From Ylistrum balloti (Eukaryota), in the NCBI RefSeq assembly GCF_031769215.1, contig NW_026782326.1:744001-808000 (forward strand): DNA of 64,000 nt, given 5' to 3'. The notes beneath the pieces were generated by a model, which saw only the letters and a list, made by a program, of their open reading frames with translations, made no database searches and was not told where the DNA came from. Of the stretch, positions 56,301-59,300 are shown piece by piece. Both the position numbers and the translations under genes were made by a program. Each line of letters begins with the position of its first letter. Position 1 is the stretch's first letter.

Positions 56301-59300
56301 ATCTAAGATATTACTGTTCACCTCATTATCATGATTATCATAATCAACTGCAGGTGCAGATTTTCTGGCAGCTTTTGTTGGCAACTCCTTCCTTCCTTCA
56401 CTGACCTCCTCACTGTCATCATCTTCAGAAGATTCTTCAGAGGGTAAAGAAATAGATCTATCAACTGCAGGTGCAGATTTTCTGGCAGCTTTTGTTGCCA
56501 ACTGCTTCCTTGGAGCTCCCTTTCCCCCTGTTGCCCTTCGACCGTTGGCAAAAGATTTCGTCTTACATTTTAGTGACTTTTCATTTTCTTCCTCCTCATC
56601 ACTGACCTCCTCACTGTCATCATCTTCAGAAGATTCTTCAGAGGGTAAAGAAATAGATCTATCAACTGCAGGTGCAAATTTTCTGGCAGCTTTTGTTGCC
56701 AACCGCTTCCTTGGAGCTCCCTTTCCCCCTGTTGCCCTTCGACCGTAGGCAGAAGATTTCGTCTTACATTTTAGTGACTTTTCATTTTCTTCCTCCTCAT
56801 CACTGACCTCCTCACTGTCATCATCTTCAGAAGATTCTTCAGAGGGTAAAGAAATAGATCTATCAACTGCAGGTGCAAATTTTCTGGCAGCTTTTGTTGC
56901 CAACTGCTTCCTTGGAGCTCCCTTTCCCCCTGTTGCCCTTCGACCGTTGGCAAAAGATTTCGTCTTACATTTTAGTGACTTTTCATTTTCTTCCTCCTCA
57001 TCACTGACCTCCTCACTGTCATCATCTTCAGAAGATTCTTCAGAGGGTAAAGAAATAGATCTATCAACTGCAGGTGCAAATTTTCTGGCAGCTTTTGTTG
57101 CCAACCGCTTCCTTGGAGCTCCCTTTCCCCCTGTTGCCCTTCGACCGTAGGCAGAAGATTTCGTCTTACATTTTAGTGACTTTTCATTTTCTTCCTCCTC
57201 ATCACTGACCTCCTCACTGTCATCATCTTCAGAAGATTCTTCAGAGGGTAAAGAAATAGATCTATCAACTGCAGGTGCAGATTTTCTGGCAGCTTTTGTT
57301 GCCAACCGCTTCCTTGGAGCTCCCTTTCCCCCTCTTGCCCTTCGACCGTTGGCAGAAGATTTCGTCTTACATTTTAGTGACTTTTCATTTTCTTCCTCCT
57401 CATCACTGACCTCCTCACTGACCTCCTCACTGTCATCATCTTCAGAAGATTCTTCAGAGGGTAAAGAAATAGATCTGGCAGATTTTGTTGTCAACTGCTC
57501 CCTTGGAACACGTCCTGCTGATTTCAGATGTTGTTTTTGCTGCTGCTGCTGAATGTCCTGAAAAATAGCAATGTAAAGGTATTTTACATAAATCTAAAGT
57601 ACAGGAGGAATTTCTAGATTTCTGTTACTGGCAACTGAGTAATTATTTGTCATCTAAAACAGAAACAACATAATTGCACAGACTTGATCTAGGACTCCAT
57701 GGCTAATTGCAAATACTAACAAGTGGTCCATAGGGCCTGTATCAATCAAAACAACTAGTCATGCAAGATCCCCTCCTTCTAAAGAAGCTTCAGATCAAAA
57801 TTACTCAAAATTTCATTATTTCTTCGACAGAAGGATTTTACAAAATAATTCTTAATTTTTCCTCGGGTCTGTGGAACACAGACCTATCAATTATAAACAA
57901 AAGACCCATAAGGCCTGTATTGCTTACCAGGTTTAGTTTTCTAAAATTACTTCATCTAAACTAAATGAAAAGAATTTAAAAAGATTCCATCTATTTTCTC
58001 ACCTCTTTCCCTTACAAGGGATCAGATGCACCAATCATTAATACAAAATTGAGTTCCCTTCACCTAAAGATTCTTCAGACCATATTTGTATAAAATTCAA
58101 TCATTCCTAAAAATAAAGGAGAATTATAAAGAATTTTCTCCAGTTTTCCTAATTTTTTCTTTTCCTCAGTTCCCTACAGGACAAGACCCATCATTTATCC
58201 ACAACTGACTTTTATTTACCCATAGATGACTCTAACCAAATTGGGTCAGAATCCAAATGGATTTTAAAGGGAGGAGGGGTGGGGTCACATCCACCAAAGT
58301 TGCGCCTCCCATTTTCCCTACGGATACCTCTGACCAACTACGGTCAAAATGCACTCAATCATTTATGACTTGTAGCGACTTATCAAACAAGAGGCCCATG
58401 GGCCTTATTGGTCATCTGACTACAAAAACTTTCAGCAAGGAGAAGGGTTATTTTTTCTACTTTGAATGAAATTTTACTAAGAAGCTGTTTTCCATGATGC
58501 AGATGGTTGTTTTGGTGAGGAGTAGGTAACTGTAATAATTGTTACCTATTTTTTGACAGAAAAGTTTGAGCTCAATCTAACTGGTGAAACTTGAGAAGTC
58601 TGCACAGAAAAAACCATGATTGTGTAATCATGTTTTAAAATGGCATCCTTGCTGCCATATTGAAGTTTTGACAAGGTCGAAAAAAATTACAACACTTTGT
58701 TGACTATCTTTCCTTGACATTCCCACCAATTTTAAGATCAATGGCACCAGTGGAACTGGAGAAGAAGTTTAAAATATGTTTTTCAAGATGATGGCCATCT
58801 TGGATTTTAGAAATACCCAAAAATAACACCACTTTGTCAGGACCATTTCAGGATCATTTCAAATAAGTTTGAGCTCAATCCCACTAGTGAAACTTGAGAA
58901 AACGTTTGAAATAGGTGTTGCACAGGAACCATGATTGCGTAATCATGTTACAAAATGGCCTCCCTGGCTGCCTTATTGCAGTTTTGACAAGGTCGAAAAA
59001 TAACAACACTTTGTTGTGTACCTTTCCTTTACATTCCCACCAATTTTAAGCTCATTGGCACCAGTGGAGTTGGAGAAGTTTAAAATATGTTTTTCAACAT
59101 GGCATCCATGGCGGTCATCTTGAATTTCAGACCGACCTGAAAAATAATACCACTTGGTCAAGACCATCTCAGTATCATTTCAGACAAGTTTGAGTTCAAT
59201 CCCACTGGTGAAACTTGAGAAGAAGTTTGAAATGTCAAAAATTTACACATGGTGGACAACACACAACCCTTTGGGTCAGATGACCTAACAAGTTGGAAGA

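Follow-up and report, generated by a model that had tools for sequence, protein, structure and literature searches.

PARP4/vPARP proteins constitute clade 5A, defined by the order BRCT, PARP catalytic, VIT and vWA with the catalytic domain in mid-protein (PMC2964712). PARP4 is described as a component of cytoplasmic vaults, whose function is given as unknown, and the same account leaves open why its linker exon has evolved so rapidly (PMC4038475). The equivalent exon of vertebrates is reported to be disordered, variable in length and under positive selection, and recognition of pathogen factors has been suggested (PMC4038475). This exon separates the ITIH-like region from the MVP-interacting domain, and has been proposed as a site of viral cleavage (PMC10450202). 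The VIT-vWA architecture is shared by ITIH4 (PMC10539598), and in ITIH4 the bait is cleaved in a variable region and proteases are trapped through the vWA domain (PMC7793589).

The gene described here, from the scallop Ylistrum balloti, is a member of the known PARP4 family, and its mosaic linker is a new variant. It shares with human PARP4 the domain order, the catalytic triad and a single giant, fast-changing linker exon, exon 30 in human (PMC4038475, PMC10450202), but differs in the length of the linker (1390 aa as opposed to about 360 aa), in the ubiquitin-like domain that precedes it and in its recognisable copies of host motifs. A study that included a homology search of exon 30 describes it as almost entirely disordered and names no such fragments (PMC4038475). 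The protease-susceptible region of ITIH4 and the bait region of alpha-2-macroglobulin are likewise long, species-variable segments, carried in ITIH4 on a VIT-vWA scaffold (PMC7793589), and the scallop gene presents the same succession of a VIT-vWA module with a DxSxS metal-site motif and a long variable segment. Both of those proteins are secreted and trap proteases, whereas this PARP4 is intracellular, is fused to an ADP-ribosyltransferase and has a putative bait that copies specific proteins.

Plant NLR proteins with integrated decoys also hold effector-targeted pieces of host proteins in one polypeptide and swap them between lineages. Such a decoy is one folded domain, whereas here many short fragments stand in series, and the comparison is one of working principle only; no NB-ARC or NACHT-LRR (NLR/STAND) module was found among the domains of the public scallop model P0249. 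The NLRP1 and CARD8 tripwires are comparable systems. Histone mimics, among them G9a, LIG1, SETDB1, EZHIP and short viral motifs, place H3-like lysine motifs outside histones. The present case differs in having a 17-residue exact block in five to six copies, at an internal position of a vault-type protein and beside mimics of non-histone proteins.

A PARP4 locus with a giant linker exon

We analysed a window of 64,000 nucleotides (G000:C469:744001-808000) from the 648-Mb genome of Y. balloti. The H3-tail-like array lies within a stop-free minus-strand frame of 1406 codons (53376-57593), and reading the flanking exons ruled out an orphan host protein. Upstream, Pfam identified the ubiquitin-like exon and then vWA, VIT, PARP catalytic, PARP regulatory and BRCT exons (33 sequences scanned, many of them short exons without a match), the VIT, vWA, PARP and BRCT exons lying outside the window at G000:C469:808-834 kb. 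The domain order of the protein is BRCT, PARP, VIT, vWA, ubiquitin-like, linker and C-terminal domain, in agreement with the clade 5A order and with the catalytic domain in mid-protein. The catalytic exon retained the H-Y-E triad and matched only PARP4 in the PDB (E 2.7e-12), and the vWA domain carried the DxSxS motif, the other MIDAS residues being outside this check. A full-length mussel PARP4 (P0039) aligned in order, exon by exon, along the locus, and 1389 aa of the giant exon recur without a single change in the scallop model P0249 (3048 aa). Given this exon order, the PARP4-only structural match, the identity to P0249 and the in-phase splice sites (Table 1), the array therefore sits in the PARP4 linker, between the ITIH-like region and the C-terminal domain.

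The C-terminal domain resembles the MVP-interacting domain in position and length and weakly matches the C-terminus of P0039 (E 0.009). It had no Pfam or PDB match, and PF26156 was absent from the precomputed lists for this clade. Two vault-repeat (MVP-type) loci were found elsewhere in the genome (G000:C634 and C320), together with a second PARP4 at G000:C149:929-948 kb. A tblastn search of the 39 kb downstream of this second copy with 60-odd linkers and H3 gave nothing at E 1e-3, and only a Pro-rich frame was found downstream, at about 893.7-894.8 kb. A further VIT-vWA gene lies at G000:C126:53-58 kb.

Several neighbouring features were recorded alongside the gene. The two upstream exons of Table 1 encode a helical stretch that follows the ITIH-like region and occupies the place of the 14-3-3 C-half in sponge and amphioxus PARP4; judged by eye, this stretch may be a worn remnant of that piece. 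The intron after the giant exon contains a 218-codon frame with C2H2-like Cys/His pairs (51762-52415, minus strand; weak Pfam match, E 0.027). Upstream of the gene, inspection of G000:C469:852-866 kb by eye showed a long, degenerate array of low complexity together with a frame resembling a LINE endonuclease/RT. On the plus strand of the window, the frame 30042-30575 is presumably a single-exon tRNA adenosine deaminase (ADAT2-like), and we take the frames at 31214-37200 to be a multi-exon type II NADH dehydrogenase.

Table 1. Positions of the PARP4 exons, linker segments and H3-tail-like copies in the window
Feature	Position	Strand	Basis
Two upstream PARP4 exons (about 63233-63376 and 62183-62272)	62183..63376	minus	
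Ubiquitin-like exon	61182..61364	minus	Pfam PF00240, E 3.9e-16
Exon carrying the C-terminal LRGG of the ubiquitin-like domain; in-frame splice to the giant exon	60767..60831	minus	
Giant PARP4 linker exon, 4171 nt	53387..57557	minus	Canonical AG/GT; phase 0 in, phase 1 out; neighbours in frame
Whole 201-bp array, Ser/Asp/Glu tract plus tail, 5.3 units	56398..57476	minus	Repeat listing, 97% matches
H3-tail-like copy 1; S28 kept; K9 to R, S10 to A, T11 to R, Q19 to R	57270..57368	minus	
H3-tail-like copy 2; S28F; same sequence as copy 4	57069..57167	minus	
H3-tail-like copy 3; S28F; one base from copy 5	56868..56966	minus	
H3-tail-like copy 4; S28F	56667..56765	minus	
H3-tail-like copy 5; 17/17 identical to H3 15-31	56466..56564	minus	
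Sixth, truncated copy (stub); H3 17-31	56349..56393	minus	
RNA polymerase II CTD-like heptads; 9 Y-S/T-P heptad-like units, one YSPTSPA	55752..56033	minus	Pfam PF05001, E 9.5e-6, over cut-off
Gln/Ser-rich stretch with GFSFG/GFGFG (FG-nucleoporin-like) motifs	55254..55751	minus	Sequence and motif count; no Pfam match
RGG/GAR-like array, 33-bp unit x12.7	54830..55249	minus	Repeat listing, sequence
Weak SLU7-like fragment	54675..54734	minus	Sole Pfam match of 41-aa piece, E 0.025, below cut-off
RS-rich (SR-protein-like) array, 36-bp unit x22.9	53639..54461	minus	Repeat listing, sequence
Four downstream exons, C-terminal domain (start 50735; about 47725-47823; 45741-45869; 44614-44973)	44614..50735	minus	P0249 matches

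The H3-tail-like array and its conservation as peptide

Each 67-aa unit of the array consists of a Ser/Asp/Glu tract and, after it, an H3-like tail. Aligned locally to the H3 tail encoded by the same genome, the five copies scored 95-102, compared with at most 56 for any of 2000 whole-frame shuffles, and the best 60 of 121 PDB matches to the array were all histone H3 or H3 peptides (best E 2e-5). The unit has no Pfam family, the ESM Atlas returned no usable match, and Pfam detected no histone fold downstream of the tails. The copies begin at residues 1492-1760 of P0249; the tails are not at the protein N-terminus, and the K4 equivalent is accordingly internal, without a free N-terminus.

Copy-by-copy alignment agreed with much of the original prediction, namely the replacement of K9/S10 by R/A, phenylalanine at S28 in three of five copies (2, 3 and 4), the acidic tract before each tail and the recent duplication of two units, copies 2 and 4 being identical over 201 nt and copies 3 and 5 differing by one base. 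The five tandem copies are real, but the description of the tails as near-complete is limited to H3 15-31, because H3 2-14 aligns only if two residues are inserted behind A7 and a glycine behind K14. The original prediction had overlooked the sixth stub as well as a degenerate leading copy near 57474-57515. The plus-strand "shadow" ORFs are probably by-products of the repeat.

An error of assembly or gene modelling is an extremely improbable source of the array. In its favour, the copy number comes from one assembly, and no contig crosses the whole array in any of the four short-read runs used (of five listed, from at most two studies). When these contigs were aligned to one unit and its flank, however, the unit was present in 4/4 runs, with a summed contig depth of 37-127 over the piled-up copies against 10-17 in the flank, a depth that gives no copy number. 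They also showed the inter-copy variant letters seen in the assembly, and three of the four runs contained the joint of the truncated copy. Canonical, in-frame splice sites, array DNA unlike any H3 gene and homologous motifs in independent species further argue against an artefact. The reads, which the original prediction had named as the place where such an error would appear, thus support a multi-copy array through the raised depth; lacking a spanning contig, they do not support an exact count.

The relationship to H3 lies in the protein. A degenerate pattern for H3 16-26 occurred at 14 places in the genome: two array copies, 11 cluster H3 genes and an H3.3-type gene. Over H3 15-30, copy 5 has the same residue as the four H3 gene types of the genome at 16/16 positions, yet differs from them at 11-14 of 48 bases, has only 5-7 of 16 codons in common with them and encodes Ser from the other codon family. 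A DNA search gave no match outside the array. These codon differences and the DNA search rule out a recent insertion of an H3 pseudogene or retrocopy. A match to H3 that holds for the residues and breaks down for the codons suggests that the peptide has been under selection, and because all 16 residues are kept with few common codons and no DNA match, the mimic appears to be old or convergent and held at the protein level. As in described histone mimics, the H3-tail match is beyond chance and conserved as peptide; with the bivalve orthologues described below, this upholds the original reading of an H3 mimic in a non-histone protein, except that the host is PARP4 and no orphan.

Among the copies themselves, all five variable sites are non-synonymous, including S28F beside K27, an outcome that would be common in the absence of selection (P 0.28), so the five-fold repeat itself may be the result of drift or slippage.

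H3-like and other host-protein pieces across PARP4 linkers

We selected 68 PARP4 proteins, mostly one per species or paralogue and without isoforms, and scanned the 65 that contained the anchor motif, calling an H3-like piece when its score reached 50 or more and exceeded those of 100 shuffles (the anchor was doubtful in two rows). H3-like pieces were present in 13/65 linkers, this gene included, and in 0/9 vertebrates; an unbiased profile search of 36 long representatives recovered one in a single protein. In a quick-method tree of 62 rows (5 dropped, Ostrea skipped; 7 rows long-branched), the gene belongs to a bivalve paralogue clade (SH-aLRT 100) in which 7/11 members carry an H3-like piece, the other four being three oysters and a partial clam model. 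Outside this clade, carriers were Dreissena, Littorina and amphioxus. A related H3 block is found in Unionida, Venerida, Mytilida and this gene, and within the clade its best-conserved part is ATKAARKS. The mussel orthologues also retain the K9 block (ARKS-K9), along with H3 34-56. At position 9 this gene has R; Littorina, Nucella and P0003 have M, P0002 has Y, and mussels, Dreissena and amphioxus have K.

Lys-to-Met changes were noted in several H3-like pieces, at K9 in P0264 (from aa 1332), P0323 (from aa 1469) and P0003 (from aa 428) and at K14 in P0014 (from aa 248). A Lys-to-Met substitution in H3 traps SET methyltransferases. P0014, P0006, P0021, P0022 and P0011 are unrelated non-histone proteins with internal H3 tails beside acidic tracts; such proteins include an ankyrin-WGR-PARP_reg protein, SET/FHA/2OG-type proteins and an unnamed JGI protein. 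The ENA entries P0002-P0005 and P0007-P0009 are single frames of 894-1078 aa, and P0002-P0005 and P0008 combine FG repeats, a near-exact H3 tail, an H4-like stretch and CTD heptads. P0002-P0009, which lie outside the 65, have linker-specific motifs common to Mercenaria and Ruditapes PARP4-A (E 1e-4 to 2e-7) and for this reason are probably PARP4-A linker exons of another animal.

The H3-like tail is one of several mimic-like segments of a single exon (Table 1), which also has many basic stretches; the SLU7-like piece had no PDB match. In other PARP4s, different foreign fragments occupy the place of this linker (Pfam E<1e-4). Actin, about residues 2-74, occurred in Dysidea, Oscarella, Ephydatia, Physella, Dreissena, Antedon and paralogue B of oyster and mussel; synaptobrevin in Dysidea, Ruditapes and lungfish; and the substrate-binding part of HSP70 in Mnemiopsis, Dreissena, oyster and Macrostomum. 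The C-half of 14-3-3 was present in Oscarella and Branchiostoma, calmodulin-type EF hands in Mercenaria and Nucella, and clathrin propeller and Prp8 fragments in Mytilus; Snf7, BRK, WH2 and ribosomal stalk protein fragments occurred as well. The Mercenaria linker additionally contains an H4-tail-like KGGKGLGKGGAKRHRKV. A ubiquitin fragment was found in 19/21 PARP4s of one set, which its query had enriched for ubiquitin.

A hand count of precomputed domain lists gave a foreign fragment in 43/60 invertebrate and 0/24 vertebrate entries, numbers that include isoforms and close kin and a query that may favour 14-3-3-like pieces; one fish entry with a helicase was taken as a mis-joined model and not counted. 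Mis-joined models are made less likely by the recurrence of one actin piece in animals ranging from sponges to echinoderms. Domain lists, linker scan and tree show integrated host-protein pieces in PARP4 that differ between lineages, with extreme turnover between species, and many of the fragments seem too incomplete for the job of the parent protein. A full-text literature search, with most subscription papers and supplementary domain tables outside its scope, found no account of host-protein fragments in PARP4 linkers.

This turnover, the 59 tandem-repeat rows in the window and the missing sign of purifying selection among the copies would suit neutral filler, a tolerant disordered exon that gathers gene pieces and low-complexity repeats and in which the array is a variable tandem repeat. 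Such an origin of the whole linker is quite unlikely in view of peptide identity despite saturated codons, the H3 block common to three bivalve orders and this gene, the broad distribution of the actin block and a stop-free frame of 4.2 kb. For copy number alone, it is a likely explanation.

The original prediction had gone further and proposed a purpose-built multivalent chromatin sink from which K9 was specifically removed. In this reading the array would be modified by the animal's own K27/K23/K18/K14 writers and would recruit readers, and the CTD-, RS- and RGG-like segments would target this paralogue to nuclear condensates. The mimics of the clade are indeed mostly nuclear (H3, H4, CTD, RS, SLU7-, Prp8- and BRK-like), the ATKAARKS block is the best conserved, basic stretches abound, and vPARP has been observed in the nucleus (PMC2964712). 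We nevertheless regard a chromatin sink or scaffold as unlikely and unsupported as the main story. Its host is PARP4, described as a cytoplasmic vault component (PMC4038475), and in orthologues and paralogues the corresponding place is taken by pieces of cytoplasmic proteins (actin, synaptobrevin, HSP70, stalk). In addition, the tails are internal, S28 is phenylalanine in most copies and the H3 piece has been lost in oysters. Against a specific loss of K9, the mussel orthologues keep this residue.

A putative bait strip in an ITIH-like protein

With modest confidence, we infer that the linker is a putative integrated bait strip, displaying conserved pieces of cell proteins to intercept foreign or misplaced enzymes. 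The observations behind this reading are the identity of the gene, the intact frame and splice phases, the H-Y-E and DxSxS motifs, the conservation of the H3 core and the lineage-shuffled mosaic. Histone tails, the CTD, FG repeats, actin, ubiquitin, SNAREs and the ribosomal stalk are frequent targets of microbial enzymes.

In the proposed mechanism, the bait would be engaged by a protease, a lysine-modifying enzyme or a binding factor of a pathogen whose target is H3 or, alternatively, the CTD, FG, RS or ubiquitin-like pieces. Cleavage or binding would then trigger capture by the ITIH-like VIT-vWA module, as in ITIH4, and would also sever or displace the link that joins the enzyme half to the presumed vault-binding C-terminus. 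The intruder would be sequestered, or ADP-ribosyltransferase activity released as an alarm. The five-fold repeat could be a recent expansion by slippage or unequal crossover that raises avidity and varies the bait, or it may be neutral.

The same bait geometry would serve a sensor of the cell's own stress enzymes, in which the fragments are automodification acceptors or substrates of leaked caspases, calpain, cathepsins or PARP4, and damage rather than infection is reported. Host proteases cut ITIH4 (PMC7793589), and the Ser/Asp/Glu tracts would be plausible ADP-ribose acceptors. This alternative is improbable in our view: it leaves both the rapid, lineage-specific swapping of baits and the positive selection in vertebrates unexplained, and the S10 equivalent is gone, as is that of S28 in 3/5 copies.

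Some observations also weigh against the bait strip. Most vertebrate PARP4s have no recognisable fragments and are nevertheless under selection, and neither the three oyster orthologues of the tree nor most other animals have an H3 piece. The ubiquitin-like, EF-hand and clathrin parts are long enough for ordinary functions, the FG, RGG and RS stretches are of low complexity and can arise by chance, and published PARP4 functions reportedly include host-internal ones (PIDD1 modification).

Extending the bait strip to the whole family, we tentatively put forward, as possible rather than probable, that PARP4 is an immune sensor of ancient origin, acting inside the cell by bait and trap. Its linker would be a lineage-edited catalogue of attacked host proteins, spanning histone tails, the Pol II CTD, nucleoporin FG repeats, splicing factors, ubiquitin, actin, SNAREs, HSP70, 14-3-3 and the ribosomal stalk, and the vault its holding cage; engagement of the bait would trip the ITIH-like clamp and the PARP, and the bivalve paralogues would be split between mostly nuclear baits, as in this gene, and mostly cytoskeletal ones. 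The array would in any case offer a natural 5- to 6-valent display of H3 15-31 usable for testing readers and writers. If the sensor reading is true, the integrated-decoy principle would extend to a non-NLR animal protein, vaults would gain a testable function and the positive selection on human exon 30 would be explained. In invertebrates the linker is legible as a set of pieces of the cell's most conserved proteins, which opens its presumed conflict with pathogens to direct experiment.
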